The notes under the pieces were generated by a model. It had not been told where the DNA came from, made no database searches, and worked only from the letters and a program-made list of their open reading frames with translations. A program made the position numbers and the translations under genes. A DNA stretch of 64,000 bases from a bacterium (GTDB taxonomy: Bacteria > SZUA-182 > DTGQ01 > JAFGSM01), in the NCBI GenBank assembly GCA_049472355.1, contig JBLIRP010000002.1, positions 1,118 to 65,117 on the forward strand. The letters run 5' to 3'. The first letter of the stretch is position 1, and every line of letters starts with the position of its first letter. This document shows, in pieces, positions 45,362 through 64,000 of the stretch.

Positions 45362-45378
45362 AGAATCGCTTTCCCTGC

Positions 45379-46827
<1,449 letters not shown>

Positions 46828-47781
46828 TTAGAATGCTGTTTGTGATACAGACTCTTGCTCGATTACTCTGGCTGCGCTAAGAATGCCTAATAAATCCAGG
46901 GTGATTAAGTCCCTTCTCATTCGATTATATTGGATACCCATTTCATGTAACTTTTCTGCGGCCCGGTCCGAGGCATCTTCCATGGCCATCATCCGTGCGC
47001 CCTGCTCACTGGCATATGATTCCAATAGCAGATCAAAGATCTGTATCTTGAAATACATGGGGATCAATTCCTTCAAAATGGTGAGGGAATCCGGTTCGTA
47101 GATCCATTTGATGCGTGCGGTTTTATCCTTTGTGGTCTGCTCTTCAAGACCGAAACTGAACGGCAGCAGCTTGATCACCTTGGGTTCACGTTTGGCGGGT
47201 CCATGAAACTTTGTATAGGCACAGTATATCTCATCGATATTCTTGTGCAGAAAGAGATCGGTCATATTCATGATCAGAGACAAGGCATCCGATATGGAAA
47301 CACCTTGCTCCGACCAGGGTTCGATATTTAATATCGGAAACGGCGTATTTTTTTTAAAAAAACGCTCACCTCTGAGCCCTTTGATCCAAACACCAACCTC
47401 GGCATTCTTATTCTTTCTCAAAATAGTATCCAAAAAAATCTGAGTCGTTTTGCCTATCCGGCCATTATAATTGCCGCACATACCAATATCCGAAGCAATG
47501 ACGAAAACGATAATCCTGTTTTGTTTACGCTTTTTAATTAATAGAGGTGATATTTCGGTCATTACCTCTTCGGAAAACATATCCTTCTCAGAAAAAAGCG
47601 CGATCTCGGATTGGATTAAGGCGATTTCCCTCATTCTTTCAGCGAACATGCTCAGCGTGGCCGCCTTAAAACGCGTCCTGGCCAGCTTTGCCGCCGCCAC
47701 AGTGGACATGGTCTCAGTGGTGCCTTTGATATTCTCAACACTTCTCATTCTGTTCTTTAAATCAATCAACTTCTGTGACAT
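46828..47781 (-). CDS. atpG: F-type ATP synthase gamma subunit
   Basis: 317 aa. N-terminal LKNRMRSVENIKGTTETMSTVAAAKL and C-terminal SEQGARMMAMEDASDRA...ITLDLLGI. Confidence 0.85.
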   Translation of the reverse strand: MSQKLIDLKNRMRSVENIKGTTETMSTVAAAKLARTRFKAATLSMFAERMREIALIQSEIALFSEKDMFSEEVMTEISPLLIKKRKQNRIIVFVIASDIGMCGNYNGRIGKTTQIFLDTILRKNKNAEVGVWIKGLRGERFFKKNTPFPILNIEPWSEQGVSISDALSLIMNMTDLFLHKNIDEIYCAYTKFHGPAKREPKVIKLLPFSFGLEEQTTKDKTARIKWIYEPDSLTILKELIPMYFKIQIFDLLLESYASEQGARMMAMEDASDRAAEKLHEMGIQYNRMRRDLITLDLLGILSAARVIEQESVSQTAF

Positions 47782-47795
47782 AATTGATACCCGCT

Positions 47796-49607
47796 TTAGA
47801 CAAATTGCTTTTTGAACTCAGCAATGATTTCCCTTAAGCCTGAATTGATCTCCGGGGTCAAATCCTTCTTTTCCTGAATCATGTCCATGATATTCTGATA
47901 ATTCTGATGAGCAAAAGCCACCAACCCCTTCTCGAACTCCCCGACCCGTTTTACAGGAATATCATCCATCAGGCTGTTGACCACCGCGTAAAGCACCAAG
48001 GCCTCCTCTGCCAACGGCATAGGCGCATACTGAATCTGTTTTAATAATTCACGCCCCCTTTCCCCTCTGGCAAGCTGGGCCTTTGTGGCCTCATCCACCT
48101 CTGCACCAAATTTTACAAAGGCCTGCATCTCATGATATTGAGCAAGGTCTATTCTCAACCTTCCGGCGATCTTTTTGATGATCTTGGTTTGCGCTGCACC
48201 ACCGACCCTAGATACCGACAAACCGACATTAATGGCCGGCCGAAAGCCCGTATTAAACAAACCGGATTCGAGATATATCTGGCCATCCGTAATCGATATT
48301 ACATTGGTCGAGATATATGAGGTGACATCCCCGCCCAGTGTCTCGATGATCGGTATGGCGGTCAACGACCCCCCGCCTTTTTCCTTACTCAGTTTGGCGG
48401 CCCTTTCCAACAATCTTGAATGCACATAAAAAATATCACCCGGATAGGCCTCCCTGCCGATAGGTCTCTTCAAGAGAGCCGACATCTCCCTGTAAGCCAC
48501 CGCATGTTTGGAAAGATCGTCGAAAATAACCAACGCATCCCCGCCCTGCTCCATGAACTCCTCACCGATGGCGCAGGCAGTATAAGGCGCCAGGTATTTA
48601 AAGGCGGTCTGCTCATTGGCTAGCGCAGCGACAATAATCGTATGGTCCAATGCCCCCTCTCTTCGCAAGACCTCCACGACCTTGGCCACGGCTGCGGCCT
48701 TCTGACCGATGGCCGCATAGACACATATCAGATTGTTGCCCTTCTGATTTATTATGGTATCTATGGCCAGGGTGGTCTTTCCGATCTTCCTGTCGCCGAT
48801 AATCAATTCCCTCTGGCCGCGCCCTATGGGGATCATTGCGTCTATCGCCTTTATCCCGGTCTGTACCGGTTCCTTTACAGGCTGGCGCGTCACCACACGG
48901 GGAGCGATCCTTTCCACTAATCGATAGCTCGTGGTGAGGATCTTGCCTTTACCATCGATGGGCTGACCGACAGCGTTCACTATCCTGCCGATCATTCCCT
49001 TCCCAACAGGAATCTCCAACTGATGGCCGGTACAAACAACCTTGGTTCCTTCCTTAATATCTTCTTCAGCTCCTAGTAAAATACAACCTACTGCATCCTG
49101 CTCCAAACTAAAGGCCAAACCGTAAACGCTTCCGGCAAATTCAACCACTTCCATAGAACCCACGTTCTCAAGGCCCGCGACCCTGGCGATTCCGTCGCCG
49201 ACCTGGAGGACAATCCCCTCCTGGCGCATGTCCTCAATCTTAAAGGTCGGTTTCGTGGCTTCTATAATCCGCCGTAGTTCCTTGGTAATGTCCTCTGTTT
49301 TCAATTGTTGGACATCGCCCTTCAATTCCATAAACTTTCTGTCTAATTCACTTACAAAACTCTGCTTGACATCAAGACTGATCTTCTTGTTTCTGTCAAG
49401 AAACAGCATTGGGCTTTCCTGTTTAGCGTCCGTAAATACCTTGATCTGTATTTTCTTTCCCGCAATCTTGGAAAGCTCTTGCTCCAAATTCTCCACAAAA
49501 TCGGATCTATAAACAGTCGGGCTCAACAAAACCAAAGGTTGACTGGCGTTATTTAAAGCCTCCTTTAAACCTTCCTGTTTAGCTTCCATCTGTTTAACAT
49601 TCTCCAT
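47796..49607 (-). CDS. atpA: F-type ATP synthase alpha subunit with a ~92-aa delta(OSCP)-C-terminal-like N-terminal extension
   Basis: 603 aa. The alpha core starts near Met93 ([14 protein letters not shown]...[13 protein letters not shown]), P-loop GDRKIGKT. Residues 1-92 resemble a delta C-terminal domain. RBS AAGGA precedes the first ATG. Confidence 0.88.
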
Positions 49608-49973
49608 AATCCTTAGCCTTCCATCATAAGTTTCTTATTATTCAGCAGCCATATTCGACATCCCTCAGCTATTCCCCATATTCCCACTCTAAAATGATAA
49701 TGACTCTCCTCTACAAACGCCACATACTGGATTCATACGAATCAATTCTCGTAAAAATCCTCAAGGCCGATTTCATCTGTACCCGATGAAAAATAGCTGC
49801 AGAATAATTATGACAAACTCCATATTGATTAAATCGTACGATATTTACTGCAAAACATAAATTGGCTTTAAGGTATAACCCTGATAGATCCAATAACGGT
49901 TATTTTGAATCCGGCTCTTGTTATAGGCTACAACTCTGTATTCCTCTATTCCATCATAGGCTACAGCCGAAAC

Positions 49974-50002
49974 ACAAAAAACCCCCAGGAGCGGCACCCT
50001 GA
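49974..50002 (-). terminator. weak hairpin plus T6 right after the atpE stop (possible attenuator)
   Basis: The minus strand reads TGATCAGGGTGCCGCTCCTGGGGGTTTTTTGTG. Short CAGG/CCTG stem, then G4T6. Confidence 0.35.
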
Positions 50003-50443
50003 TCAAATGATCAGAATCAATGCGACAACCAGGCAATAAAGACATAATGCCTCAATGATGGCCATACCGATCAACATGGTCATAAAAAGCTTTCCCTGGA
50101 TCTCGGGCTGTCTTGACATACCTTCCAATGAGGCCATTCCGAACTTGGCAATCCCCAGGGAGGCGCCGAATGCACCCCAACCGAGCAATATGGCTGCAGC
50201 TACTGCCTTTAAAGCCTCAACCCAGGCGACTTCGCCACCCTTTGTTGTTACGATAGCTGCGGATTCTTCCGCCCATAATGCCAAGGGAGATGACAAAGCC
50301 AGTAGAATCGTATTGACAAATACAAAATAAATGGTTTTTTTGGACCGTATAACCCTTATAACCCTGTTCTTTGTGGAATTGTATAATGATGCAATAGACA
50401 TTGAGACCCTCCTTTTAATGATTAAAATAATGGAATGTTGCAT
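50003..50443 (-). CDS. atpE: F-type ATP synthase c subunit with signal-peptide-like N-terminal extension
   Basis: The C-terminal ~75 aa form a c-subunit hairpin (GASLGIAKFGMASLEGMSRQPE...MAIIEALCLYCLVVALILI). It is preceded by KKTIYFVFVNTILLALSSPLALWA|EE. The true start (50443, 50401 or later) is uncertain. Confidence 0.85.
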   Translation of the reverse strand: MQHSIILIIKRRVSMSIASLYNSTKNRVIRVIRSKKTIYFVFVNTILLALSSPLALWAEESAAIVTTKGGEVAWVEALKAVAAAILLGWGAFGASLGIAKFGMASLEGMSRQPEIQGKLFMTMLIGMAIIEALCLYCLVVALILII

Positions 50444-50466
50444 TGGTTATAAAAGGTTAACCTTGC

Positions 50467-50946
50467 TTAGGATGCCTGCCGTAGACTGTCCAATATGACC
50501 TTCTCTACAAGTTCCTTATGACCGTCCTTCTTCGCCAGATCCGGAAGCGCCCTGTAAGCGGCTGAACTGACCAGATCGATCAATTTCAGATTCGTCTCCT
50601 GGAGCAGTTCCTCCCTCTCCCTGGCGATTTCAGCACGGGCGTTTTCTATGATCTTGTCGGCCTCTTCCTTGGCCTTTGCGATGATATCATTTTTCATCTT
50701 TTCCGTTTGGTTCAAAATCTTCTGTGCATCTACCCTGCTTTGAGCAAGAATCTCATCCCGATCCCTCAATGCCTTCTCTTGTTCCTCTTTGGCGATTGCA
50801 CGTTGCCGTAACCCCTCCTCGATCTTTTCCTTTCTTGCATCCAATATCTCCATTATGGGTTTGAAGAAGAATTTTTTCATAAGAAAAAGAAGGATAAAGA
50901 AATTGACAACTAAAAATATTGTTTTTGTAAAGTCAAAGCCTATCAT
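50467..50946 (-). CDS. atpF: F-type ATP synthase b subunit
   Basis: 159 aa. One N-terminal TM (IFLVVNFFILLFLMKKFFFKPI), then a long charged coiled coil (ILDARKEKIEEGL...). Confidence 0.85.
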   Translation of the reverse strand: MIGFDFTKTIFLVVNFFILLFLMKKFFFKPIMEILDARKEKIEEGLRQRAIAKEEQEKALRDRDEILAQSRVDAQKILNQTEKMKNDIIAKAKEEADKIIENARAEIAREREELLQETNLKLIDLVSSAAYRALPDLAKKDGHKELVEKVILDSLRQAS

Positions 50947-51012
50947 CAGTTCACCCCGAGTAAAAAGTTTTTTTAACGGAAACTATTTTGTAAACAATAT
51001 TGCCTTTATCTA

Positions 51013-52293
51013 TTAATGTACGCCTAATTCTTCCTTGAAATAAAACAGACTCAGCATAACAAAGACCAAGGTCTGTATAATCGCGAAAAGGACATCCATG
51101 CAGAAGATCATAAATGGAATAAACAAGGGAACTACAAAATAATATCTCTTGATTGCAACGTCAGTAACCATCGAAAGCACACTATGCTCGCCAAATATAT
51201 TACCAAAAAGTCGCAGTGAAAGTGAAAGAAGTCTTGCTCCATTATCAACAAGATGCAGCGCAATGAGGAACAAAACAATTATTTTTACAGGAGCCTGTTT
51301 TAAGATCCCGAAGGCTATGTTTAATAATTTTGATATAGGCATCCAAACAGCGGATAAAATCTTTTTATGAAAAGTTAAAGCCCTATTCAAATACCGTAAA
51401 ATAAAGAAAACAATCAAAATAAGTGAATACATACTGACGATATTAACGATTACGGTATGCTTGAAGGGTATAAAAAGAATGAACATGATGCCGATACACA
51501 TAAGCAATGTGCCAATGCCGTAAAAAATCGAATATTTGACGAATGAAGCGTCCTCCCCGTCTTCCAATCCCGAGATCCTCAGGAAAAAGCCGACCATGGA
51601 CTCCGCAAGACACTGAATTCCCCCTGGAACATCATCTCTCTGTAGCCTTGATCGTATCCAAAAACCGAATGCCAGCAATAAAACGGTCGCCGCCACACAA
51701 TAGACAGCCATCAGTTGAAATGGCAAGGATAATAATACGGCAATATTATCGATCAAATAGAGAATCAAGAATGGAATCACGAAGAGCTTCCACATGAAGG
51801 AACCTTTTTTGGACTGCGTCCTTGAGCCTTGCCCCTCATGCCTAAAAACCTCTTCCTCATCCGAGGCCTCTTTTTTCCCAAGCCCTGGGATTGGGTCCAG
51901 CCATAATTTGGCCGCCTTTTTGGGTCCATTTAATTTTATATTGTAATACTGTAAGCCGATGACAACGATCAAGGCCAATGCAAAGGTGTTGCTCCAATCA
52001 CTGGTTGGCGGATGTGCATGAGGAATTATGAGAAAAAAATTGGAGATTAAGATAAATAGAACAAAGGTACCCAGAAACGGAAGTAAGTGAGCCAGCTTTT
52101 CCTGCCCCAGCTCCGTCCTTATAATGTTGTCCAGGGATTCTACCAGAACCTCGGCAATATTTTGAACTGAGCCGGGCGCGCCATCCTTTTGCCTGTTTTT
52201 GATCGCTAAATACGAAAAGATGAGAAGAATTGCCGATGTAATTGAACAATAGATTATTTCATAGATCCACGTTAAACCAAAATGAACATGCAT
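51013..52293 (-). CDS. atpB: F-type ATP synthase a subunit, enlarged (426 aa) by an apparent partial internal duplication
   Basis: The C-terminal half has LLSLSLRLFGNIFGEH (essential Arg) and AIIQTLVFVMLSLFY. The N-terminal half repeats the PG.Q..AE... module and has LLSLPFQLMAVY at the equivalent helix. Confidence 0.85.
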   Translation of the reverse strand: MHVHFGLTWIYEIIYCSITSAILLIFSYLAIKNRQKDGAPGSVQNIAEVLVESLDNIIRTELGQEKLAHLLPFLGTFVLFILISNFFLIIPHAHPPTSDWSNTFALALIVVIGLQYYNIKLNGPKKAAKLWLDPIPGLGKKEASDEEEVFRHEGQGSRTQSKKGSFMWKLFVIPFLILYLIDNIAVLLSLPFQLMAVYCVAATVLLLAFGFWIRSRLQRDDVPGGIQCLAESMVGFFLRISGLEDGEDASFVKYSIFYGIGTLLMCIGIMFILFIPFKHTVIVNIVSMYSLILIVFFILRYLNRALTFHKKILSAVWMPISKLLNIAFGILKQAPVKIIVLFLIALHLVDNGARLLSLSLRLFGNIFGEHSVLSMVTDVAIKRYYFVVPLFIPFMIFCMDVLFAIIQTLVFVMLSLFYFKEELGVH

Positions 52294-52404
52294 TGCTTAC
52301 TTCTATACCCTTTCTTTTATGCCGCTTGCGAGCCTTGTATGCGATTTTTGGTAAACGATTTTTATTCATATCGCCTTGAAATTCTCTCTTAAAAAACGAT
52401 TGTA

Positions 52405-52433
52405 ATGATATCAATAATACCGTTTTTTGTCAA
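52405..52433 (-). promoter_or_regulatory. sigma70 promoter of the ATP synthase operon
   Basis: The minus strand reads TTGACA (52433-52428), 17-nt spacer, TATCAT (52410-52405), about 110 nt upstream of the atpB ATG. Confidence 0.6.
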
Positions 52434-52555
52434 CACCCAAATGAACCAATTCCAAAACATAATCACGTCATTCCTTTTCCCCTCATCGCATACATTTGAG
52501 GAGGATTGATCATTCCATAGGATTTCAATACCTATTTTTATATAATATTAAATTC

Positions 52556-53094
52556 CAACTGCCCGGCGTCCTCACAGCGATTTGTACCGTCACCGGTGCC
52601 AAGGCATCATCCCTATCAGCGGCCCCTTCCCCTCACGCAGGGGGCTTTCTGACAGGTCGCAGCATGCGACTATCATCCCGGATTCCTTTGCATGAGCGAT
52701 CCCTGCACGGCCTCTCCCCATGAATATCCGTTTCGTGCAGGTCCTCACGTTGTCAAGCCCTGCACTCCGTTCTCATACGTCCATCACCTCTTACGATCAT
52801 TTACCAATCGACCATTACGAACCAGCGCCTTTTCCCGCACACCAGCTCAACCGCTTTCCTCTGGTGCGCAGGTCTTATGCGTAAAACATTCTTATGTAAG
52901 AATTCGTACGCCTCTTCCGGAAACCTTGGATTCGCCGATCGTATACGATATTTTGCATCCGCACAGATCCCCGTCGCTGGACTACTTCGAATTTGCCCTT
53001 TTGGCCTGATATCCGACCTGTCCAAAAAAATGACGCCTAAAGGAACGGTCGGGACCATCCATACCTTCAGGGACGGGAAATCTGAACCACGCAC
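52556..53094 (-). ncRNA. group II intron-like structured RNA, 5' part only (domains I-III); no IEP ORF or domain V seen
   Basis: GC-rich island in AT-rich DNA with no credible ORF. The minus strand starts GUGCG (53094-53090). It contains GAGGAAAGCGGUUGAGC and GGUAAAUGAUCGUAAGAGGUGAUGGAC, which resemble Ll.LtrB domain I (UGGAAAGCGAUGAGU; GGUAAGUUAUGGUUGUGGAC) as I recall it. Confidence 0.5.
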
Positions 53095-53129
53095 CATTTT
53101 ATCCCCTTCGATATAATTTTTATTATTTT

Positions 53130-53157
53130 AAAAGGTAGCATGATTGCTACCTTTTTT
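53130..53157. terminator. orphan bidirectional intrinsic-terminator hairpin
   Basis: AAAAGGTAGCA-TGAT-TGCTACCTTTTTT. A 7-bp stem flanked by A4 and T6. No adjacent upstream CDS on either strand. Confidence 0.6.
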
Positions 53158-53615
53158 CAGACTCTAAAAAGCACGCCTGCGACTTGCACCCTGCAGTGAA
53201 AATTTCATATCATTGTAACCATATGTTTTTTAACGTATTTTTAGCTTTGTAGAGATTATTGTTATAGGCATGCATATTGCTCCCCATAAGTGCAGCACTA
53301 CAGAAATATCCTAATCCCATAATGGCCTTATCCACCAAATAAAGATGAAGGAGGGGGGAGAATATCGAATAGAAAAGTCGATGATCTCATAATTCAATCC
53401 ATCAATTATATATCACTATTCTACGGTTTTCTTACGGCCCTTTCATGCCGAGCCTCAGCACACGCGAAGACGTTGTATTAGGGCTCATTGAATTCGTAGT
53501 TTTTATCCTTTGAATTTGTCGATCCTGTTATCATCGGCCGGAAAATAGTGTTCCAAATAGAGGGAATCAAAAGTCACTATTAAAACCTTACTATATTTAA
53601 ACAGAGGTCACGCAA

Positions 53616-54074
53616 ATGTACAGAGATAAAGATTCAACCAATAAGGCTATATTCTATACCAGGGCTGTTAACAGCCCGAAGGATACGTGGTCGATCGATA
53701 CCCAGATCAAAAGGGCGCAATCGTACGCGAAATCCACGGGTTTAAATCTGCAGGAAATATTCGTCGATGAGACGCAGGTCCCCATATACTATATAATAAA
53801 GGATAGGGCCTCCGTATCATCTCAAAAATCCTTCCAGCCCAAGAGGCTTCTTATGCCCGATTTAGTTCCGGTTTATCAAGAGGCTATGACACAACTCATT
53901 GAAATGACAGCTTTTCAGAGGATGCTCGCGTACATTCGTTCGAATCCGGTCAATGTACTTCTGATTTCAAAGCTTGAGATCTTGTTCGCAAACATGAAGG
54001 ATGCATTCAGCTTCGTTGACAATGAGCTAAATCCCCGGCGAATCGCCCTTAAGACCCTTGGTGAGATTAATTGA
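53616..54074 (+). CDS. serine-recombinase (resolvase) catalytic-domain-like protein, probably inactive, no HTH
   Basis: AIFYTRAVNSPKDTWSIDTQI...IFVDE...VLLISKLEILFANMKDA aligns by eye with YARVSTSQQSLDIQ...IFTDK...ILVKKLDRLGRD. The Ser10, Arg68 and Arg71 equivalents are not conserved. Confidence 0.55.
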   Translation: MYRDKDSTNKAIFYTRAVNSPKDTWSIDTQIKRAQSYAKSTGLNLQEIFVDETQVPIYYIIKDRASVSSQKSFQPKRLLMPDLVPVYQEAMTQLIEMTAFQRMLAYIRSNPVNVLLISKLEILFANMKDAFSFVDNELNPRRIALKTLGEIN

Positions 54075-54224
54075 TCGTCGTTGGAAGTAAATCAGAAATA
54101 TAAATTCGGGATTGAAATATTCCCCTGCTTGAGGACAACGGGGTATTTAGAAAAGACAAGAATGTTCACCGGTATTTCGTATTATTATAAGGTTATTAAT
54201 CTCCCTCAACCAGGATAAATCAAT

Positions 54225-54623
54225 ATGCAAATGACGAAGAATACGAGTAAAACCAAGGGAATTGTTGTCTGCAATACAACATTATGCTTAAATTGTGGTA
54301 ATTGTATTGTTGCATGCAAAAGGAGGCATAAAAATATTTCACGTCATAGAAGAGAGGGCGCGACTTTAATCGGCATAAGTTTATTTCCTGATTTATGCAG
54401 TCTATGTCAAGATGCCAAATGCATAGAAGCCTGCAATCGCAACGGGCTGGAAAGAGATGAGAATGGGTATATCATTGTTACGGACAAATGCGTAGGATGC
54501 GGTTCCTGCGCCAGGGCTTGCCCTTATAACGCCATACTGCTTTTTTCCGAGCCAGAGGGAATAGGTTCTTTTTTGGGAGACTTTGTTTCTTATATCAAAA
54601 GCTTTGTGAAAAAAAATGGATGA
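54225..54623 (+). CDS. CooF/HybA-like multi-[4Fe-4S] ferredoxin
   Basis: CLNCGNCIVAC, CSLCQDAKCIEAC, CVGCGSCARACP cysteine clusters. 132 aa. Confidence 0.85.
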   Translation: MQMTKNTSKTKGIVVCNTTLCLNCGNCIVACKRRHKNISRHRREGATLIGISLFPDLCSLCQDAKCIEACNRNGLERDENGYIIVTDKCVGCGSCARACPYNAILLFSEPEGIGSFLGDFVSYIKSFVKKNG

Positions 54624-54629
54624 GATACT

Positions 54630-55772
54630 ATGACGGAAGCCAAAATAATGCAAAAAGTGATAGTCATTTGTGATTTATCAAATTGCTTAAATTGTGGTAA
54701 CTGTATTATTGCCTGTGAACGCAGGCATAAAGATATTTCACGACATTCCCGGGTCTTTTCTACAATTATCGGGATCAGTCTATTGCCGAGTCTATGTATG
54801 GTATGTAACGATCCTAAATGCATAGAAGCTTGTAATCATGATGGAATGACAAGAGATGAACATGGTCACATCGTTGTTACGGATAATTGTATTGGTTGCG
54901 GCTTGTGTATGAGAGTTTGTCCGTATAACGCGATACTATTATTCTCAGGGGAAATCAGAAGAAGTTCATTTATGGATAAGCTCATTGATTTAATACGCCC
55001 AAACGGAAATAACATTGAGGATAATAATGGGAAAAAATCCAAGGCCATTGATTTGGAATCCGTAGAAGACATTATTGACCGACATGGAAATGGAGCTGGC
55101 TCTTTGCTGAACATCCTCAATGATATTCAAGACCATTATGGTTATTTATCCCAGGAGGTATTGAGATATGTTTCAAGAACACGTGAAATACCTCTGACAC
55201 AGATTTTCCATGTCGTTACGTTTAATCGAGGATTCAATCTCATTCAAAATCAGCGATGGGAAACCGAGGGATCAAATGGAACAACCTGGCATATAGGCGG
55301 CGCCCAAAAGATAACAGAGATGTCAAATTTCGACAACGATGGTTTTCACCTGAGGATAAATGACAAGAAATGTGTATCGTGCGGTCTCTGCGTAAAGGCA
55401 TGTGAAGAAGTAAGCGGAGCTTGTGCATTACGTTTCTCCAGACAGGTTATTTACGGAGAGGTTAAGAAGCCGTTTTTGGAATTCCCTGAGGCCTGTACCG
55501 GCTGCGGTGAGTGCGCCAAGGTATGTCCTACAAAGGCAATCACCATTGACTATGAAGTTGAAAAAATGCGATCCAAGCAGAAGGTAGTAAAATGTGACGG
55601 CTGCGCTGGATACGATGACAGGGCTTGTGTCGTTAACTGTCCAACTGGGGCACTAAAGGCAATACCGTTGGATGAATATCTTTCTCAACATAAGATATCC
55701 TACAATATAGAATTAAGAGATATGCTTAAGCAGTCACTCAAGGAAAAAGGCGAGGCTATTTCTCCTTTATAA
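54630..55772 (+). CDS. multidomain Fe-S protein: CooF-like N-terminus + NuoE-like helical segment + polyferredoxin C-terminus
   Basis: CLNCGNCIIAC, CMVCNDPKCIEAC, CIGCGLCMRVCP. LLNILNDIQDHYGYLSQEVLRYVS...HVVTF (NuoE-like, no 2Fe-2S cysteines seen). CVSCGLCVKAC, CTGCGECAKVCP, KCDGCAGYDDRACVVNCPTGAL. Confidence 0.82.
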   Translation: MTEAKIMQKVIVICDLSNCLNCGNCIIACERRHKDISRHSRVFSTIIGISLLPSLCMVCNDPKCIEACNHDGMTRDEHGHIVVTDNCIGCGLCMRVCPYNAILLFSGEIRRSSFMDKLIDLIRPNGNNIEDNNGKKSKAIDLESVEDIIDRHGNGAGSLLNILNDIQDHYGYLSQEVLRYVSRTREIPLTQIFHVVTFNRGFNLIQNQRWETEGSNGTTWHIGGAQKITEMSNFDNDGFHLRINDKKCVSCGLCVKACEEVSGACALRFSRQVIYGEVKKPFLEFPEACTGCGECAKVCPTKAITIDYEVEKMRSKQKVVKCDGCAGYDDRACVVNCPTGALKAIPLDEYLSQHKISYNIELRDMLKQSLKEKGEAISPL

Positions 55773-55872
55773 CAGCACAATAATGCAGTAAGTAGTCTTT
55801 TCTATGACCTATTATCATTGCAATTCGTTACTTTTTGATATCGCTAACTAGTATGGCTAAAGAATAAAAATA

Positions 55873-55892
55873 AGGATAAACATCCTCTTTTT
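55873..55892 (+). terminator. weak intrinsic terminator after the first Fe-S gene pair
   Basis: AGGAT-AAAC-ATCCT followed by CTTTTT. Only a 5-bp stem. Confidence 0.3.
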
Positions 55893-56125
55893 ATATATGA
55901 TCGATTCTATTCATTTATATTCATATAAGATCCACCTCAAAGTCAGTTTAAAAAATCTATTAGAGAATATCGATTCTCAAATGTAATAGACTGTTTGTAC
56001 AGAACTTTTTATTTTTTTGATCGTACATTCGTATTGGGCAGGTTATAGCTTTTGATGATTGTTTATAGTAATTAAATTCATATAGATAATGAGATAAACA
56101 ATATGATGGAGTATAAGGTGATATT

Positions 56126-57331
56126 ATGGACAAATTAATCGTTATCCTCTTATTTGAGGATGATCCTACTCATGCCGGCTTGATAAGAAAGGTATTGCAT
56201 TCCTATAACAGATCAATCGTTGTAGAGCAGGCATCGACTGCAGATGAATTTTACGACTTATTAAAAAAGGAACCAAAATACGATTTAATCATATGTGACT
56301 ATGATCTTCCAAGGAATATAGGGTTGAAGATGTTGAAGAGAACAAGAAGAGAGTTCATGTTTAAAAGGCCTATAATCGCACTGGTCGGTATGCGGTATAA
56401 GAAATTTGCAGAAGAATTGATTGCATTCGGGGCTACACGCTATCTCATTAAGACAGAAAATTTTCATAATTCTCTTCCATTGATTGTCGAGGATTGTCTA
56501 AGGGCAGGTCCTGAAATAATGGAACATGTTATTAAGAGGCATGACCAGGATTCGTTGATACGATTCAAGATTGATGGACAGGAAGTTGAGGGAGTCAAAG
56601 GGGAAACCATACTGGAAGTGGCCCGCAGGTATAGTATCAAAATACCAACCCTTTGCTATCATCCTTCAGTGAGCACGTATGGGGGGTGCCGGCTTTGCGT
56701 CGTTGAGGTGATCAAAAACAAAGGGAAACGACTGGAACCATCATGTGTATTCCCAATATCGGACGGAATCGAGGTCAAGACGGCAAGTGAAAAGGTGCTT
56801 AATACGCGAAGGTTGGTTTTGGAGCTTTTGCTGGCTCAATGTCCGAATGCAGAGATTTTAAGGAAAATTGGAGAGGTTCTTGGTTTGCAGAGTTCCCGCT
56901 TCCCTTTGAATACAGATGGTAATAAATGTATTTTATGTGGCTTATGTGTCCGAGTATGCCGGGAGGTCGTCGGATTGGGGGCTATAGGCTTTTCTCAGAG
57001 ATATCTTCATCGCGAGATAACCCCACCGTTCTGGGAGCTGTCCGAAGCCTGTTCCGGATGTGGGGAGTGCGCCAAGATATGTCCAACCGGTGCAATCACC
57101 TTGGAATACATTGATGAGAAAATACGAAAAAAACGCGGTGCTGTAGCGGTTAAGTGTGACGGATGTGCGGGGTATGGTAACAAGGCTTGTGTGATCAACT
57201 GTCCAACGGGGGCTCTGGATGTTGTTCCGTTAGAGGAGTATGTTTCCAAACACAAGATATCTTTTAATGCAGAACTCGAAGAGCTTATGGAGAATTCAAC
57301 CGAACAGGAACCTGAGGGAAAATATGAATAA
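56126..57331 (+). CDS. response-regulator receiver domain fused to NuoG/HydA-like [2Fe-2S] + [4Fe-4S] modules
   Basis: REC: LLFEDDP, LIICDYDLP, YLIK. 2Fe-2S: IRFKIDGQEV...PTLCYHPSVSTYGGCRLCVVEV...PSC. 4Fe-4S: CILCGLCVRVC, CSGCGECAKICP, KCDGCAGYGNKACVINCPTGAL. Confidence 0.85.
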   Translation: MDKLIVILLFEDDPTHAGLIRKVLHSYNRSIVVEQASTADEFYDLLKKEPKYDLIICDYDLPRNIGLKMLKRTRREFMFKRPIIALVGMRYKKFAEELIAFGATRYLIKTENFHNSLPLIVEDCLRAGPEIMEHVIKRHDQDSLIRFKIDGQEVEGVKGETILEVARRYSIKIPTLCYHPSVSTYGGCRLCVVEVIKNKGKRLEPSCVFPISDGIEVKTASEKVLNTRRLVLELLLAQCPNAEILRKIGEVLGLQSSRFPLNTDGNKCILCGLCVRVCREVVGLGAIGFSQRYLHREITPPFWELSEACSGCGECAKICPTGAITLEYIDEKIRKKRGAVAVKCDGCAGYGNKACVINCPTGALDVVPLEEYVSKHKISFNAELEELMENSTEQEPEGKYE

Positions 57332-58220
57332 GAATGCCGAGAATCAGCATACAGTCTTTCGTGTGTTTTGGGTTTTGCTAGTCATTATTATTACCTTTTA
57401 TTTATACCTGCGATACAAGGCATATTTCGCCACGCCAAGCCATTTGAGACATTTTAATCCGGTCACACTTGAGCCTAATCAGCTTCATCAAGTACTCAAG
57501 CCGTCAGGGAGTTTGGGACATGGTCTCGGTATTGCGGGGTCGATCTTAATGATTTTATGTGTGATTTTATATATTTTGAGAAAAAAAATTGAAAAGCTGG
57601 AGTCCCTGGGACCGCTTTCCTTATGGTTGGAAATACACATCTTTCTCGGCATACTGGGGCCTGTTTTGATCTTCTTTCATTCTGCTCTGAAATTTGGCGG
57701 TTTAATAGGTATTGGATTCTGGTTAATGGTAATTGCCGTCATTTCAGGGGTTCTGGGAAGAACATGTTTTGGAAAGTATTTTGGGCGTTTAACCAGGAGA
57801 TATGAGCTGTTACATAAAATCGACGTCTTTCTCGAAAGGGATTTGAAAGAGGCAAGTCAGAATTCTTCCATCATTAAAAGGACCATGGAGTTGAAATCAT
57901 CAAACTTCCCAAGCAATCTAGGCATAATAGCCGCTTTGAAGGAATGGGCATATATAAAGAAGGAAAAAAATAATCTGATGGTCTTAATAGAAAAGAAATA
58001 TGGTAATAAAGGATCAGAAGAGCATGAGACACTTAAAAAATGGGCTACCGAAGTTATTAGTAGGTTGGATGAAATAAGTGCTGTTTCTGCCTTAAACCTT
58101 CATTTATCCATAATAAATAAATGGCTCTTGATCCACGAAGTATGTAGTTATTTATTGTTTATTTTCCTTTTTATCCATGTTTTTGTAACTGCATATTGGG
58201 GATATACGTGGTTATTATAG
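57324..58220 (+). CDS. polytopic membrane protein with two H-x13-H helices (candidate di-haem b-type electron conduit)
   Basis: The start ATG overlaps the upstream stop (ATGAATAA). WLEIHIFLGILGPVLIFFHS and LLIHEVCSYLLFIFLFIHV each place two His exactly 13 residues apart within TM helices. A soluble insert of about 115 aa precedes the last TM. Confidence 0.75.
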   Translation: MNKNAENQHTVFRVFWVLLVIIITFYLYLRYKAYFATPSHLRHFNPVTLEPNQLHQVLKPSGSLGHGLGIAGSILMILCVILYILRKKIEKLESLGPLSLWLEIHIFLGILGPVLIFFHSALKFGGLIGIGFWLMVIAVISGVLGRTCFGKYFGRLTRRYELLHKIDVFLERDLKEASQNSSIIKRTMELKSSNFPSNLGIIAALKEWAYIKKEKNNLMVLIEKKYGNKGSEEHETLKKWATEVISRLDEISAVSALNLHLSIINKWLLIHEVCSYLLFIFLFIHVFVTAYWGYTWLL

Positions 58221-58331
58221 GCCTTTTTTGCTCAATGTAGGCCATAAATTGAATACAAAAAGGATGTAATTAAAAATTTGATTCAAAACTAATGCCTTTC
58301 ATTCATCTAATGTGAGCGAGGTATACCTTAA

Positions 58332-58853
58332 ATGAAAAAATATTCTTTATCCCTGCTATTATTACTCATAGTTGTTTTTTTTCTCCTTTATGCCTGTTTT
58401 CACGTAAAATGGTCAGAGATGCTTTCCCCCGGAGACCTTTCCTTGGCACATGCGGATATGGATTTGTCAGAGGACTGCCAGGCGTGCCATACGAAGGGTA
58501 AACAGATCGATAACGGAAAATGTCTGGACTGCCATGCGGAGATACAAGACAAAATGGATTTAAATCAGGGTCTCCATAGCCAGGCGTCAAGTGAATGTTT
58601 AGATTGTCATTCAGAGCATCATGGAAAGGAAACCAACATTGCTTATTTCGATGAAGATAACTTTGATCATGCCAAGACAGGGTGGTCACTGGAAGGAAGG
58701 CACACGTTGTTGAAATGTGAAGCCTGCCATATGAAAGACTCCTTCTTGCTTGACAAGGCAGATTGCATTCATTGTCATAAGGATTTTCACGAAGGCGAGT
58801 ATGGCACTGATTGTGCTGAATGCCACGATCAGGATTCATTCAGAATGGAATAG
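58332..58853 (+). CDS. hexahaem cytochrome c (paired-CxxCH / c3-c7-like), signal peptide or lipoprotein anchor
   Basis: Six CxxCH motifs: CQACH, CLDCH, CLDCH, CEACH, CIHCH, CAECH. N-terminal hydrophobic leader with a possible lipobox LYAC. Confidence 0.88.
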   Translation: MKKYSLSLLLLLIVVFFLLYACFHVKWSEMLSPGDLSLAHADMDLSEDCQACHTKGKQIDNGKCLDCHAEIQDKMDLNQGLHSQASSECLDCHSEHHGKETNIAYFDEDNFDHAKTGWSLEGRHTLLKCEACHMKDSFLLDKADCIHCHKDFHEGEYGTDCAECHDQDSFRME

Positions 58854-58873
58854 AATGAAGGTCTTACTCCCCC

Positions 58874-59068
58874 TTATTGATCAGGCTGCTGATAGCCCTC
58901 ATCCTCTTCGAAATTTATCAATTCCTTTTTATACTGTAACTCCTTTTCAATAACATAATTTTTCAAGGCCTCTATGATCACATCCTTTATTGGTATAGCA
59001 TCCTTCTCTGCAATAAGCTTAAGCTGTTTATAAATATTGTCATCAAGATTATTGATTTGAATCTTCAT
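58874..59068 (-). CDS. ribbon-helix-helix (CopG/Arc-like) small DNA-binding protein, antitoxin-like
   Basis: 64 aa. MKIQINNLDDNIYKQLKLIAEKDAIPIKDVIIEALKNYV fits a beta-alpha-alpha RHH layout. Acidic tail. Confidence 0.6.
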   Translation of the reverse strand: MKIQINNLDDNIYKQLKLIAEKDAIPIKDVIIEALKNYVIEKELQYKKELINFEEDEGYQQPDQ

Positions 59069-59209
59069 AGTGATACCCTCACATTTGATGTTTTTGGCGT
59101 GACGTATTTATTATTTCTAATCATCACAGGAATGTCCTCATCGAATCCGGCACCAACATAAAAAAACTTCGGTCTTTCTTTGAAAAGCAAATCAACATAT
59201 ATTTCAATT

Positions 59210-59379
59210 CACTACTGTCCGGTTAAAAATAAAGCAATTTGCCCAAGGACGCTAATATCAAGGGTTTTGAGATGTTTGACATTTTATCGATTTCAAATTG
59301 TTTTAACATTTCGCTATCAATAAAATCAATCTGTTACGATCTTAAAAATTGCATTTTTGAGAACAACCGGACAGTAGTG
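59210..59379. mobile_element. 170-bp MITE-like element with 15-bp perfect TIRs and 9-bp target-site duplication
   Basis: TIR CACTACTGTCCGGTT (59210-59224) and its exact reverse complement AACCGGACAGTAGTG (59365-59379). Flanking direct repeat ATTTCAATT at 59201-59209 and 59380-59388. The interior is AT-rich and non-coding. Confidence 0.75.
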
Positions 59380-59639
59380 ATTTCAATTAATTATTTAAAG
59401 CATTGCATATCAATCGGTACTTAGTATACATGTAATGTTTCAGACAAATCAAGTCCGAAAAAAACAATCCGAAAAAAACAATGGCGTATATTTCAGCATT
59501 ACGGGAAGGGCCGGAGGGCTCTTTGGCCCTTGCTGAGGATGTAGAAGGACCAGTAGATAAACCGAATGAAGCTCAGACCTAGTTCTCCAGGCCTTTGTTT
59601 ATAAGAAGGAATGCGATCTTACGGGGCCTAAGACGCGAG

Positions 59640-61355
59640 TTATTCAGCCAATATCCGCGAAATTCTTCGATTGATGTAGTTGACCTTTTTCTTTAATCTA
59701 TATTTTGTATGGATTCTGGATTCAAGCGTTCTCGCGGACTTTGTTATGACACGCACCCTGCGTGCCAAGCCTTTTGGTATCTCTTTGAATAAATTTAACA
59801 TGCAAAGCAAAAGACAAAACAGCCACGGTTTATTTAATTTAGTCGCTATGTAACTCGCGCCCTTCTCCCTTCTTTTAAGAGCCAAGTCCAATGTTCTCCC
59901 CGCTAAACTGGAGGTAAACCATTCATCCGCATTGATCATTTTCAATAATGTCTGAAAGGCGGCTATCTCTTCTTTTATCCGCTTCTTGATTTCCTCCGGT
60001 GGCTCGTTTGTTGGTTCTTGGGTAAGTAATATTTGCAGGTACTTGATAAGAAATCGGACCCTTTGCATGACTTCGTATTTTTCTCTGTTTGATAGTTCTC
60101 CTTCCAGTTTTTCGGCCAAATTTAGACGAAGTTCCTCTATCAAATCCAGCTCGTAGGCACTTGAAAACTTGAATCTTTCTCCAAACAGGGAAGGGATCCC
60201 AACAAAAATATCGGCAACCTCCTGCAATCGGTATATTTGGAGCAACTTATTGAAATTCTCCCAACACGGGAGCATGTTTGGTGTTTCTTTCGGAACGTTC
60301 GCATTGTTCCAAACCGTACTGCATGGATATAGTTTTAAGAATTGATCTATATCCACATGGTCGACATCGAGATTATATTCCTGGGTTACCCTTGGGAAGC
60401 AGGACTTGGTCAGATTCAAGAATTCCTCCCAGTTCGGGTATTTGTTCAGAAAACGGTCCAGCACGACTCCGGCTATAAGGATCATATGAAATTTAATTGT
60501 ACCGAGCTCCATTTTGATATCTGCATGAATATCACCAAGGCCGTCGGTAATCATAATGATCTCGGCCTGTCTCATATCGGGATCGTTTTTTATGTCTTTG
60601 ATGGCCGTTAGTATAGCCTCATTTATTTTTGTTTCATAACACTCGACCGTATGCAGGTTAATCAGATATCTTATGAGTTCCTTTATTTGTCCGGATTTCG
60701 TAATCTGCTGCAACTGGCCCATCTCCTGATTAAAAAAACGAAAGTATATCTGAGGGCTCTCCTTCCGGACTCTTCGAAGATATTCAATACAGATTGCCTT
60801 GGCAGCATAGAGCTTGTTCAGTTGGTCACCTTCCATGGAGCATGAATTATCAAATAGGATATAGACCTTTTGTCTCTTGTTTAATTCCTTGTCCTTTCCA
60901 TAAACCAGATCAGAAACAGATAAGCCTTCGGGATCGATGAATTTTTTCCTGTATAACTCATGATTGATGAGTTTTTTGTAAAAAAGATCCTCTGTATTGA
61001 TCAAAAATTCTCTGGGCAGGATATGCAATATTTGGCTTGTTGAAGTCACTTTTCCAATATCGACATTATCAGCCAATTCTGAATCTATAATCATATCATT
61101 TCTATCGATTTCCTCCTTCACTTTGTTGTCTTCGAAGATCCTATTTCTCTCGAGAATGGGCGCCATTCTCCCCTTGATTGGATACGCGGTATCCATTGAA
61201 AAAAGGCACCGTGCAATAAAAAATATCTTTATCCATTCCTTTGGTAGACCATCACTAACATTCCGGATATCATCCGGAAAACAATCCGGTATGTTCAAAA
61301 TATCTAAATAACACTCCGGCTCTATAAAGAACCAATGGTTAAGGAATTCATTCAT
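59640..61355 (-). CDS. von Willebrand factor A (vWA) domain protein, partner of the upstream AAA+ ATPase
   Basis: 571 aa. Central MIDAS: VYILFDNSCSM (DxSxS), ...ETK..., IIMITDGLGD. Long helical N- and C-terminal regions of unknown family. Confidence 0.82.
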   Translation of the reverse strand: MNEFLNHWFFIEPECYLDILNIPDCFPDDIRNVSDGLPKEWIKIFFIARCLFSMDTAYPIKGRMAPILERNRIFEDNKVKEEIDRNDMIIDSELADNVDIGKVTSTSQILHILPREFLINTEDLFYKKLINHELYRKKFIDPEGLSVSDLVYGKDKELNKRQKVYILFDNSCSMEGDQLNKLYAAKAICIEYLRRVRKESPQIYFRFFNQEMGQLQQITKSGQIKELIRYLINLHTVECYETKINEAILTAIKDIKNDPDMRQAEIIMITDGLGDIHADIKMELGTIKFHMILIAGVVLDRFLNKYPNWEEFLNLTKSCFPRVTQEYNLDVDHVDIDQFLKLYPCSTVWNNANVPKETPNMLPCWENFNKLLQIYRLQEVADIFVGIPSLFGERFKFSSAYELDLIEELRLNLAEKLEGELSNREKYEVMQRVRFLIKYLQILLTQEPTNEPPEEIKKRIKEEIAAFQTLLKMINADEWFTSSLAGRTLDLALKRREKGASYIATKLNKPWLFCLLLCMLNLFKEIPKGLARRVRVITKSARTLESRIHTKYRLKKKVNYINRRISRILAE

Positions 61356-61374
61356 GGATCAAAGGCCTCAGTTT

Positions 61375-62871
61375 TTATTTGGACTGCCTAAAATGAACAT
61401 CATTGAATCTTTTGACATCGTGTTCAAACCCCTCGATCAGTTCCAATGTCTCCTTCTTTATAGCCATCTCTTTGAGCAAAGAACAGCTTTCTTCGAAAAT
61501 CTCAAGCAAATGAATTAATCTTGATTTGCTCGGTCGGAACCCGATCTTATTTACAAAAGTCATCAATCTGTTTTTAATACTTGCCTCTACAAAGGAACGT
61601 TCAATTTCGTCTATGATCAACCCGAAATTCTGATGTTCTACCAATGCACCCGGATCCTTGGCGGATTTTATTGTTCGAAAAATACTCATAATATTAAATA
61701 ATCGATTTAGAAGCTGCTTATCGTCGAAAAAATATTTCTTCGTTGCATCAATGATCCCCTTTAAACGCCTTTTTTCTTCTTCCTTTCCCACGATACAGAT
61801 CAAATAATACAGGTTATTGAGGTCTCTTTCCTCCACTACTGCACGTCCGTCAAGAATTGCAGATGCCCTCAGCAGATTCTGTGTCTTTGCCGCCGTTCTG
61901 TCGCTGATCATGAAATTATAGCCGCCCTCAATCCTCTTTGACTCTTCCGTATATTTACGAATTATATAATTCTTCAGGAAAAGGATATACTCCGGAATCT
62001 TTATGGACTGTGTTTTGATCAACAGTTTAATATGATTAAGTCTTTCCAAATCCAGTGTAACATCTGATTGTCTTATTTTACCTACATTTTTTCTATAAAC
62101 CTGGTCTATTGACAATTTGTAGTATAGGTTTTTGTTTTCCATGATATAGCACTTGTATAAAAACCGATCCAGGACAGCCTCCAGCATTTCGGTCGCTCGA
62201 ATATAATTTGAAGCGGCAATAACAGTATTGAGAGGAGAATCAACTATCTGTTCACCATTTACCAGTCTTTTCTCATTCAGCAGGGTAAGAAGGGACCTCA
62301 ACAACATATCGTTAGCATCAAAGATTTCATCAAGAAAAGCAAAATCAGAGGCAACAATCGAACCCTTAATATTGTGTATCAACTTCCCTCTTTTGAGATC
62401 ATCCATGTTATAGGCACCAAACATATTATCCGGCATCGTATCTTTGGTAAGTTGCTTCTGAAATAATTTTATATCTTCGAAGGATGAAAAGATTTGTCGT
62501 GCGAGAAGGCTTTTCGCCATTCCAGTTCTTCCCAAAATTAACTGGTGCTCACCGGTCAAAATGGCATAAAAACTCTGGCGAACGATCTCTTCTCTATCCA
62601 CTATGTTTTCGCAAACGAAATTGATAATATGGTTTATCTCTCCGGTTGTTTCAAACGCAATTTGGTAGTCCGGATGGTCTATTTCGAGTATCTTATTCAA
62701 GTCCAAATCAAGACCTGTTTTTACCTTCTCCTGCTCAAGGCCCGTCATGTCATTGACTGAAGGATACTTTTGAAGCCTATCCTCCTCTTCATTCGCTTCC
62801 GTTTCTTCCGCACGGCCAATGTCTTTATAAAGATAATCTGAATCTATGCTCATAGTCTTTTCCTTTCCCAA
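61375..62871 (-). CDS. MoxR-family AAA+ ATPase, RavA-like
   Basis: LILGRTGMAKSLLARQI (compare RavA GPPGIAKS), Walker B FAFLDEIF, LLTLLNEKRLVNG...VIAASNY...LEAVLDRF. About 100-aa N-terminal and 180-aa C-terminal extensions. Confidence 0.82.
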   Translation of the reverse strand: MGKEKTMSIDSDYLYKDIGRAEETEANEEEDRLQKYPSVNDMTGLEQEKVKTGLDLDLNKILEIDHPDYQIAFETTGEINHIINFVCENIVDREEIVRQSFYAILTGEHQLILGRTGMAKSLLARQIFSSFEDIKLFQKQLTKDTMPDNMFGAYNMDDLKRGKLIHNIKGSIVASDFAFLDEIFDANDMLLRSLLTLLNEKRLVNGEQIVDSPLNTVIAASNYIRATEMLEAVLDRFLYKCYIMENKNLYYKLSIDQVYRKNVGKIRQSDVTLDLERLNHIKLLIKTQSIKIPEYILFLKNYIIRKYTEESKRIEGGYNFMISDRTAAKTQNLLRASAILDGRAVVEERDLNNLYYLICIVGKEEEKRRLKGIIDATKKYFFDDKQLLNRLFNIMSIFRTIKSAKDPGALVEHQNFGLIIDEIERSFVEASIKNRLMTFVNKIGFRPSKSRLIHLLEIFEESCSLLKEMAIKKETLELIEGFEHDVKRFNDVHFRQSK

Positions 62872-62960
62872 AACTTTAAATCGATCATGTACAATCTCCG
62901 CAACTTTTCACTCATATTTTTCTGAACCACAGTCCGACAGCAACTTATTGGAGAAGCTAT

Positions 62961-63353
62961 CTATAATTTCCCTTGCAATTCATAGGCAAACCTGTGGGCA
63001 CTTTGACGCGTCTTTTCCCAATCTTTCTTGATTATGCCTCCCTGAAAATCCTGATAAAATTTGTGATCAGTGCACCCCAGACTACAGCAATCCGATGCAT
63101 GAGAATTCACCGCCAGAGGACAGTCCTTTGAACATTCATAAAAATCACATAACGGACAGAAATTTGTTATACGCTCATCCATTTTCAGAGACCTAAAGGC
63201 CTCTCTTTTTACCATCTCTATGAGCGTAGAATTAAGAGTAAACTTTTTATTCAAATTATCAAACACTTCGTTCGATAATAAAGAAATCGCGTGCCAAATC
63301 TTGATTGAATCTGATATCGCCTGCCGTGAATCGTTATAATACATATTGATCAA
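62961..63353 (-). CDS. small Cys-rich protein, first gene of the AAA+/vWA operon
   Basis: 130 aa. CPLCDFYECSKDCPLAVNSHASDCCSLGC gives C-x2-C-x4-C-x3-C-x11-CC-x3-C, suggesting metal or Fe-S binding. No family recognised. Confidence 0.6.
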   Translation of the reverse strand: MINMYYNDSRQAISDSIKIWHAISLLSNEVFDNLNKKFTLNSTLIEMVKREAFRSLKMDERITNFCPLCDFYECSKDCPLAVNSHASDCCSLGCTDHKFYQDFQGGIIKKDWEKTRQSAHRFAYELQGKL

Positions 63354-64000
63354 TTTTAATTTTTCGGTTACAATAAAAACCAGCTATTCTTAACAAAATC
63401 TATTATTGATGACCTTCACAAAAAAAATATCGGGCCGTAAAGCGGCAAGATATGGTACGCTGTAGTTTAGTTAGTTATTTTTTTCTAATATACGTATATC
63501 CTTAATAATCATGCAACAATTGTACCCTTAATAATCTATCCACATAGTCTATTTGTATTTTAAATACAATATAATAGCAGTTTTTGTTTGGTCTCGATCG
63601 CATCAAGGTTGCGATTTAGCGACTTTGAGGAAAATTTATGGTCGCAACATTGCGACGACTATTTATTTTCACTGTCCTTGGAGCTATAGGCGATTTTTTT
63701 GTAATGTTCTTATTGATTAATCTCTGTATATGACTTCCAATGCCTTGTTTATTAAGAATAAACTTCTCGTTAAGATCCCCTGTTTGCTCAAGCGATTTCT
63801 TACGATTCTCTGATCCATCTCCTCACAAGCCTGTACTGCTGATTGATATTCTTTATGGCTGCCCGTTTTCCGGGATTTCTACTCATGGGAAGACACGTAT
63901 TGAAATTTCAGGAGTGTTATCTATTAATGGCAGGCTTTAGCACTGGAACCGATTCCGTCCGGCAATAGACGGTGACCACTATTGCGTCCTTTTTTTGGAT

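Follow-up and report, generated by a model that had tools for sequence, protein, structure and literature searches.

The sequence analysed is a 64,000-nucleotide (nt) stretch of bacterial contig JBLIRP010000002.1 (positions 1,118 to 65,117), termed the window, and the element under study is a three-gene unit close to its 3' end. The unit encodes a small Cys-rich protein, a MoxR-family AAA+ ATPase and a partner with a von Willebrand factor A (vWA) domain, and its ATPase and vWA genes very probably form a RavA/ViaA-type MoxR-vWA pair of an undescribed subfamily. The three minus-strand open reading frames (ORFs) of a preliminary description of this DNA (62961-63353, 61375-62871 and 59640-61355) were all present, and the spacings of 89 and 19 nt given there are right when TTG starts are used. 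ATG starts are better supported and place 107 nt between the Cys-rich and MoxR genes, with 19 nt between MoxR and vWA. For the small gene the ATG at 63344 was preferred because all full-length homologues from the protein search are 127 aa long. For MoxR the most likely start, judged from the sequence, is the ATG at 62853, preceded by AAGGAAAAG. A consensus scan found no terminator-like sites between the three genes. The unit and the features upstream of it are as follows.

59640-61355, minus strand: vWA partner with a metal ion-dependent adhesion site (MIDAS), 571 aa; MIDAS DNSCS at 60837-60851, T242 within 60627-60653, TDG at 60540-60548; ViaA-like pre-vWA motif at 60966-61022; hydrophobic helix at 59787-59822, then a polybasic tail to 59643
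61375-62853, minus strand: RavA-clade MoxR AAA+ ATPase, 492 aa; Walker A at 62509-62532, Walker B at 62323-62337
62961-63344, minus strand: Cys-rich protein, 127 aa; cluster CPLC..C..CP..CC..C encoded at 63072-63158
63512-63526, minus strand: sigma-54 (-24/-12) promoter-like site GGTACAATTGTTGCA, 166 nt 5' of the Cys-rich ORF
63641-63656, minus strand: terminator-like hairpin that separates the activator gene from the Cys-MoxR-vWA unit, from a consensus scan only
63979-64000, minus strand: 3' end of a gene for a PAS-rich sigma-54 enhancer-binding protein of 1276 aa, the remainder of which lies beyond the window (C61:65096-68926)

The ATPase carries a P-loop of the G-x-x-G-x-A-K-S type (GRTGMAKS, residues 108-115), Walker B FLDEI and the motifs LLTLLNE, AASN and LEAVLDR. 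Pfam matches were PF20030 bpMoxR (3e-35, 121.6 bits against a cut-off of 27), AAA_5 (65 bits) and AAA_lid_8 (33.8 bits). The likeness to E. coli RavA, noted in the preliminary description, was confirmed: the nearest solved structures were those of RavA (6q7l/3nbx, E = 1.4e-24), matched over residues 78-346 and covering the AAA+ module only, and BLASTP against E. coli RavA gave 28% identity (E = 3e-28). E. coli ravA-viaA was used as a yardstick in the same Pfam scan, in which RavA itself matched PF20030 at 1.5e-56 together with LARA and RavA_C. Unlike RavA, the window protein had no match to LARA or the C-terminal domain (the PF20265/PF12592 set, both of which E. coli RavA matches), and with the NCBIfam RavA equivalog NF010054 it scored 105 bits against a cut-off of 681, which places it outside RavA proper. 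It has an N-terminal extension of ~70 residues and a C-terminal region of ~140 residues of its own. The window ATPase is a RavA-clade MoxR AAA+ protein without LARA and RavA C-terminal domains.

Homologues of the vWA partner fell into three tiers according to how closely they match it in identity (tier 1, 41-50% among the loci and genomes examined; tier 2, 33-40%; tier 3, 25-32%). The complete mid-protein MIDAS reported previously was present as D169-N-S171-C-S173, T242 and T270-D271-G272, and D169, N170, S171, S173, T242, D271 and G272 were invariant across 20 homologues. The gene lies directly 3' of the RavA-like ATPase gene, as viaA does relative to ravA. All Pfam vWA matches were below their cut-offs, PF05762 was not matched in the Pfam scan, and a Protein Data Bank (PDB) search with the vWA sequence profile found nothing, including for the N- and C-terminal domains. 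Comparison with ViaA by hhalign gave a probability of 79% (E = 1.6e-5) over alignment A2 columns 100-291 only, against ViaA residues 257-453, a span that takes in the vWA domain and the preceding motif ILPREF..FYKKLI (LPxE..FY+KL in general form, shared with ViaA along with the MIDAS). In an AlphaFold2 (AF2) model, with a mean predicted local distance difference test (pLDDT) score of 68, a confident vWA fold at ~159-300 was followed by long C-terminal helices, and Foldseek with this model returned vWA domains only, that of NorD (9qhe_G) among the top matches. In ViaA itself a helical domain (1-319) comes first and the vWA domain forms the C-terminus (PMC9489729); in the window protein, by contrast, the vWA domain is in mid-protein, ahead of a 270-residue helical C-terminus with a hydrophobic helix and a polybasic tail. 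By these alignments the vWA partner appears distantly ViaA-like, and its subfamily is undescribed in Pfam and NCBIfam.

The C-terminus of the vWA protein could be aligned across the 20 homologues, with similar length and character, and is basic and hydrophobic in tier 1. The C-terminal helix is moderately hydrophobic (Kyte-Doolittle 19-residue mean 1.1-2.5 in most tier-1 members), and the tail has 7-14 Lys/Arg (10-14 in most) with 0-4 Asp/Glu (0-2 in most). From hydropathy and charge the polybasic tail is predicted to act as a peripheral membrane anchor, in line with the binding of lipids by RavA and ViaA (PMC9489729). In the JGI collection, a 399-aa protein annotated as RNase M5 with Toprim domains (P0031) aligned with the vWA protein at 55% identity across 42% of the query, which may reflect a gene fusion or an error in gene calling.

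The first gene of the unit had been described as coding for a 130-aa protein with eight Cys. The ORF and the Cys cluster are real, with 7 Cys (63, 66, 71, 75, 86, 87 and 91) in 127 aa when counted from the ATG. Its dN/dS ratio (nonsynonymous to synonymous substitution rates) against relative L009 was 0.077, with dS near saturation, and the ORF is a real gene. Cys 63, 66, 75, 87 and 91 were invariant in an alignment of the wider family, which follows the pattern C-P-x-C-x2-Y...C...S-x(1-2)-C-x3-C with helices on either side; this pattern suggests that the protein carries a metal site. Pfam, PHROG, NCBIfam and PDB profile searches and a scan of IMG/VR returned no relatives, and the AF2 model (mean pLDDT 49) was too low in confidence for a fold search. 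Word-based and exhaustive hidden Markov model searches of billions of proteins found only ~14 clusters.

The Cys-rich gene was found 5' of MoxR only in close relatives (L009-L011, 69-81% identity), and a counterpart in that position was absent from ten more distant loci, including L001, L004, L007, L008, L002, G010, G013 and Thermodesulfobacteriota. A second copy, at native GC content and not linked to the pair, lies in G000 (C49:5096-5488; L151), and the same paralogue is present in G001 (C23; L152:10555-10947) and G002 (C22; L153), genomes of the same genus in which no vWA gene was detected. It is 130 aa long, 44-48% identical and located beside a cytidylate-kinase-like gene in all three genomes, with an HD-GYP-type response regulator nearby in G000 and G001. 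These unlinked paralogues were missed by the exhaustive protein searches and were listed only once a wider profile was used. One remote relative was located in a phage-like 77-kb contig. A trio limited to close relatives, with unlinked Cys-rich paralogues, leaves two genes as the conserved unit, and the Cys-rich ORF was rejected as a conserved third component on the ten distant loci and the same paralogues. Half of the outcome that the preliminary description had named as fatal to a three-gene system was observed, a trio confined to close relatives and a Cys-rich protein with unlinked paralogues. The Cys-rich protein is an independent small family of which one copy was recruited into the MoxR-vWA operon, and from its sequence it is probably a lineage-specific, metal-binding accessory.

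Relatives of the vWA protein numbered 25 by protein search, 69 loci by genome scan and 50 by metagenome scan, the last of which added hardly any new tier-1 contexts. MoxR was immediately 5' of vWA in most of the 69 genome loci, and in most of the ~120 loci overall, which span several phyla. Tier 1 occurs in uncultured relatives of the window organism, tier 2 in Thermodesulfobacteriota and tier 3 in Ignavibacteria, Kapaibacteria and Bacteroidota. In the vWA tree tier 1 formed one clade (support 97/100), within which the window copy and its 79-87% identical close relatives were placed. Orphan vWA homologues without adjacent MoxR were seen at L005/L006 (G011:C4) and L087 (G008:C76), 3' of an operon of the NuoE/NuoF/FdhA formate dehydrogenase type and a gene for a cyclic nucleotide monophosphate-binding protein. 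At L090/L091 (G010:C268) the upstream copy of vWA contains a TAA in frame and the downstream copy of MoxR falls into two ORFs; both may reflect decay or mis-assembly.

The sigma-54 promoter motif and the PAS-rich activator next door are new observations. The motif GG[CT]A[CT]-N5-TTGC[AT] was located 71-238 nt 5' of the gene that opens the unit, in 7 of 7 tier-1-clade loci tested (window, L009, L001, L004, L007, L008 and L002), against a background of 0.016 per kb-strand. Because the motif precedes the Cys-rich ORF in the window and L009, the three genes probably share one sigma-54 promoter there. The activator has ESELFGY..GAFTDA, Walker motifs and a C-terminal Fis-type helix-turn-helix (HTH), and its orthologue at L004 matches Pfam Sigma54_activat. 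The genome has rpoN (PF04552, 204 bits, on C59). Control of the pair by sigma-54 is likely on these sequence features.

At lower coordinates in the window are a second F-type ATP synthase and an Fe-S/haem module, with two further genes at the ATP synthase.

44888-52293, minus strand: second F-type ATP synthase operon, a-b-c-(delta-C/alpha)-gamma-beta-epsilon; conserved neighbour and candidate client
53267-53281, plus strand: sigma-54 promoter-like site GGCATGCATATTGCT, 5' of a 152-aa ORF and the Fe-S/haem module (53616-58853)
43792-44790, plus strand: p332, membrane-anchored; recurs near the MoxR-vWA pair or the ATP synthase, with a second copy at C61:69035-70114
42158-43093, minus strand: p311, located 3' of epsilon in most operons of ATP synthases with a delta-alpha fusion

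Within its own clade the pair adjoins an ATP synthase with the delta-alpha fusion in 5 genomes (window, L001, L004, G004:C46 and G010), and a vWA homologue lies beside the same kind of ATP synthase also in L002. In G010 two MoxR-vWA pairs flank a single delta-alpha operon. Three arrangements were observed: upstream and co-directional, convergent downstream, and with the Fe-S module in between (window). ATP synthase-adjacent vWA copies occur in 4 of the 6 subclades of the tier-1 clade. The fused alpha subunit was present in 12 of 20 genomes of the taxonomic class of the window organism, all 12 of which also have a canonical alpha (on C83 in the window genome), and the fused enzyme was present in 4/4 examined genomes with tier-1 vWA. 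The window ATP synthase groups with L002-type operons and the window MoxR-vWA pair with L001/L009 types, and they are still found together. A multi-stalk ATP synthase was engineered in 2025 (PMC12229609), and the second ATP synthase of the window is built likewise. The literature searched held no description of an F-type ATP synthase as a MoxR client or of a MoxR-vWA link to one.

The best reading of these data, to which a probability of roughly 0.4 was given, is that the unit encodes a sigma-54-induced, membrane-directed remodelling pair that serves the neighbouring ATP synthase. The Cys-MoxR-vWA genes would be transcribed as a single operon dependent on sigma-54, which the PAS-rich enhancer-binding protein encoded next to it would activate. 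MoxR would assemble as a RavA-type AAA+ hexamer and the vWA protein would serve as a distant ViaA-like adaptor. The MIDAS of this adaptor would grip an acidic residue of the client, and its hydrophobic helix and polybasic tail would probably keep it anchored to the membrane on the cytoplasmic side. Remodelling of the client would then be driven by ATP hydrolysis. Within the clade of the window this client would most plausibly be the second F-type ATP synthase, acted upon during assembly or activation, and the Cys-rich protein would probably be a metal-binding accessory confined to the close relatives of the window. The parts of this scheme differ in strength. That the two proteins are a RavA/ViaA-type chaperone pair is very probable. 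Their assignment to the delta-alpha ATP synthase as client is tentative. The more specific form, a dedicated sigma-54-induced assembly or activation factor for a delta-alpha-fused and possibly multi-stator enzyme, with a membrane-docked vWA protein gripping an acidic stator or rotor element, is rather unlikely as it stands.

Several results weigh against a role at the ATP synthase. Four tier-1 pairs are not beside it (two in G007, L008 and G004:C31). G006, G008, G009 and G011 have the ATP synthase and carry, elsewhere in the genome, vWA genes from other clades, several of which have no adjacent MoxR. Genomes of tiers 2 and 3 (Thermodesulfobacteriota, Ignavibacteriota and others) have canonical alpha only, which means that dependence on the fused enzyme is not a property of the whole family. 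The sigma-54 motif was found 5' of atpB in 0 of 8 loci, and a single ancestral juxtaposition, maintained by synteny, may account for the adjacency. The contigs of G001, G005, G012 and G013 end at atpB and are uninformative for adjacency; absence of vWA from G001 and G005 was for this reason set aside as proof that the ATP synthase is independent of the pair.

In the strongest alternative the client is unrelated to the genes nearby, perhaps a membrane or metallo-enzyme complex that is widely conserved, and the position next to the ATP synthase is inherited synteny in one lineage. In other phyla the pair has other and unrelated neighbours, acetyl-CoA synthetase in tier 2 (Thermodesulfobacteriota) and housekeeping synteny in tier 3 (Ignavibacteria and Kapaibacteria); the lack of the fused enzyme in those genomes and the four tier-1 pairs away from it also speak for this explanation. 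Inherited position alone accounts less readily for an adjacency that outlasts three rearrangements and an operon-flanking duplication in G010, or for an ATP synthase and a MoxR-vWA pair of different groupings that stand together in the window. An unrelated client was judged almost as probable as the ATP synthase.

The preliminary description had proposed, as one of two readings, a maturation factor for a neighbouring energy complex. Adjacency to the ATP synthase in the 5 genomes gives this real but limited support; the Fe-S/haem module, which appears to be driven separately by sigma-54, also adjoins the pair in the window and L009. Maturation or remodelling of this electron conduit (54225-58853) by the pair, by analogy with RavA-ViaA on Nuo and Frd, was considered improbable. 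RavA-ViaA interacts with NuoEFG-type subunits (PMC3893208), the orphan vWA relatives of G008 and G011 are beside NuoE/F/G-like formate dehydrogenase genes, and the module, which has a sigma-54 motif of its own, stands in L009 directly 3' of vWA on the same strand, where the same second motif and a 66%-identical 152-aa ORF were found. Homologues of the membrane cytochrome b and multihaem cytochrome of the module are, however, absent within 10 kb of every other MoxR-vWA locus, and members of the cytochrome b family are common across the order with or without a tier-1 vWA gene.

The second reading of the preliminary description, in which the Cys-rich protein completes a ternary vWA-MoxR system for conflict or phage defence, was not borne out and a defence role is very unlikely. 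In its favour, the top Pfam match is named for MoxR-vWA-beta-propeller ternary systems, a remote Cys-rich relative lies in a phage-like contig and the region has foreign GC content and a miniature inverted-repeat transposable element (MITE)-like insert. E. coli RavA, however, matches the same Pfam model more strongly, so its name is no pointer to such a system and the match was discarded as evidence. PADLOC gave only two weak sub-threshold matches to the ATPase (E = 3e-4 and 4e-3) and nothing for the vWA or Cys-rich proteins. Pfam found no VMAP, iSTAND, FtsH or beta-propeller partner among the three proteins and there is no variable vWA effector, features by which those systems are defined (PMC7159879). 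The locus is chromosomally syntenic amid bioenergetic genes, and the Cys-rich gene is missing from all more distant loci and has unlinked paralogues.

The unit may be set against the known systems as follows. With E. coli RavA-ViaA it shares the ATPase-then-vWA order, the RavA-clade AAA+ core with its Pfam set (bpMoxR, AAA_5, AAA_lid_8) and G-x-x-G-x-A-K-S P-loop and, likely for both, a location at the membrane or among bioenergetic functions; anionic lipids and respiratory complexes are binding partners of the E. coli pair (PMC9489729, PMC3893208, PMC10585395). It differs from RavA-ViaA in its sigma-54-type promoter and, in the lineage of the window, in the extra Cys-rich first gene. NorQ-NorD, CbbQ-CbbO and CoxD-CoxE, which mature or activate an enzyme encoded nearby, are likewise two-gene AAA+/MIDAS pairs beside a client, and the NorD vWA domain was among the top structural matches; unlike in these systems, no nor, cbb or cox genes were among the neighbours at any locus inspected, and an F-type ATP synthase is the candidate client. 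The vWA-MoxR ternary conflict systems (Kaur, Burroughs, Iyer, Aravind 2020, PMC7159879) also combine a MoxR and vWA core with one extra operon gene, but here the third gene is not VMAP, iSTAND or FtsH, the vWA protein has no beta-propeller fusion or variable effector domains, and there is no defence island.

The undescribed subfamily has regulatory input, from sigma-54 and a PAS-rich activator, and in one lineage a concrete and testable candidate client. MoxR-vWA pairs are common and, to our knowledge, most are without a known client. Should the link to the ATP synthase hold, it would show how an unusual ATP synthase is assembled or switched on and would widen the RavA-ViaA theme, in which AAA+ chaperones act on membrane energy converters; a dedicated factor would be the first case of an AAA+/MIDAS chaperone with an F-type ATP synthase as its client. 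If the link fails, the pair is one more orphan MoxR-vWA pair.

Two observations concern the neighbouring complexes. In the G007/G010 lineage (L002 6053-6961; L085; L091) the epsilon subunit is ~302 aa long, with an insert of ~150 residues between its N- and C-terminal parts. A homologue of the membrane cytochrome b of the window (57240-58220) was located in G006 (C27:100583-101485), ~9 kb from a delta-alpha ATP synthase; the Fe-S/haem module and this enzyme may be linked in more than one lineage. The genes p311 and p332 are candidate accessory subunits of the delta-alpha ATP synthase. Neither has a match in Pfam, NCBIfam or PHROG. For p332, which has an N-terminal transmembrane helix and a conserved AHDNHR motif, BLASTP identities of 44-54% were obtained to genes of L001, L002 and L004. 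A 339-aa gene 5' of MoxR in L007/L008 was rejected as a p332 homologue on the absence of BLAST similarity, and its product looks like an outer-membrane protein from its signal peptide and C-terminal Phe.

Between the Fe-S/haem module and the vWA gene are two small features. An Rfam scan of 52000-64000 (E <= 0.1) found no RNA families.

58874-59068, minus strand: 64-aa Arc-like ribbon-helix-helix (RHH) protein (phrog_3180, Arc-like repressor, 2.3e-5)
59201-59388, no strand assigned: MITE-like insert between the vWA and small RHH genes, with 15-bp inverted repeats

RHH homologues adjoin the vWA gene in L001, L004 and L015 (BLASTP 41-42%; tblastn). GC content drops from ~55% to ~40% at 42 kb, and the low-GC block continues to ~70.4 kb in window coordinates (C61 ~43-71.5 kb), which makes ~28 kb at roughly 40% GC inside a 54% GC genome. 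The block contains p311, p332, the second F-type ATP synthase, the Fe-S/haem module, the Arc-like RHH gene, the vWA-MoxR-Cys unit, the PAS activator, the second p332 copy and a response regulator with HTH and cupin domains. The same flank (LpxK, GT9, epimerase) borders the block in the low-GC relative L009, to which the block proteins are 74-85% identical and two of the flanking proteins only 50-61%. This pattern of identity suggests that the block arose by allelic replacement, through recombination from a lower-GC relative.

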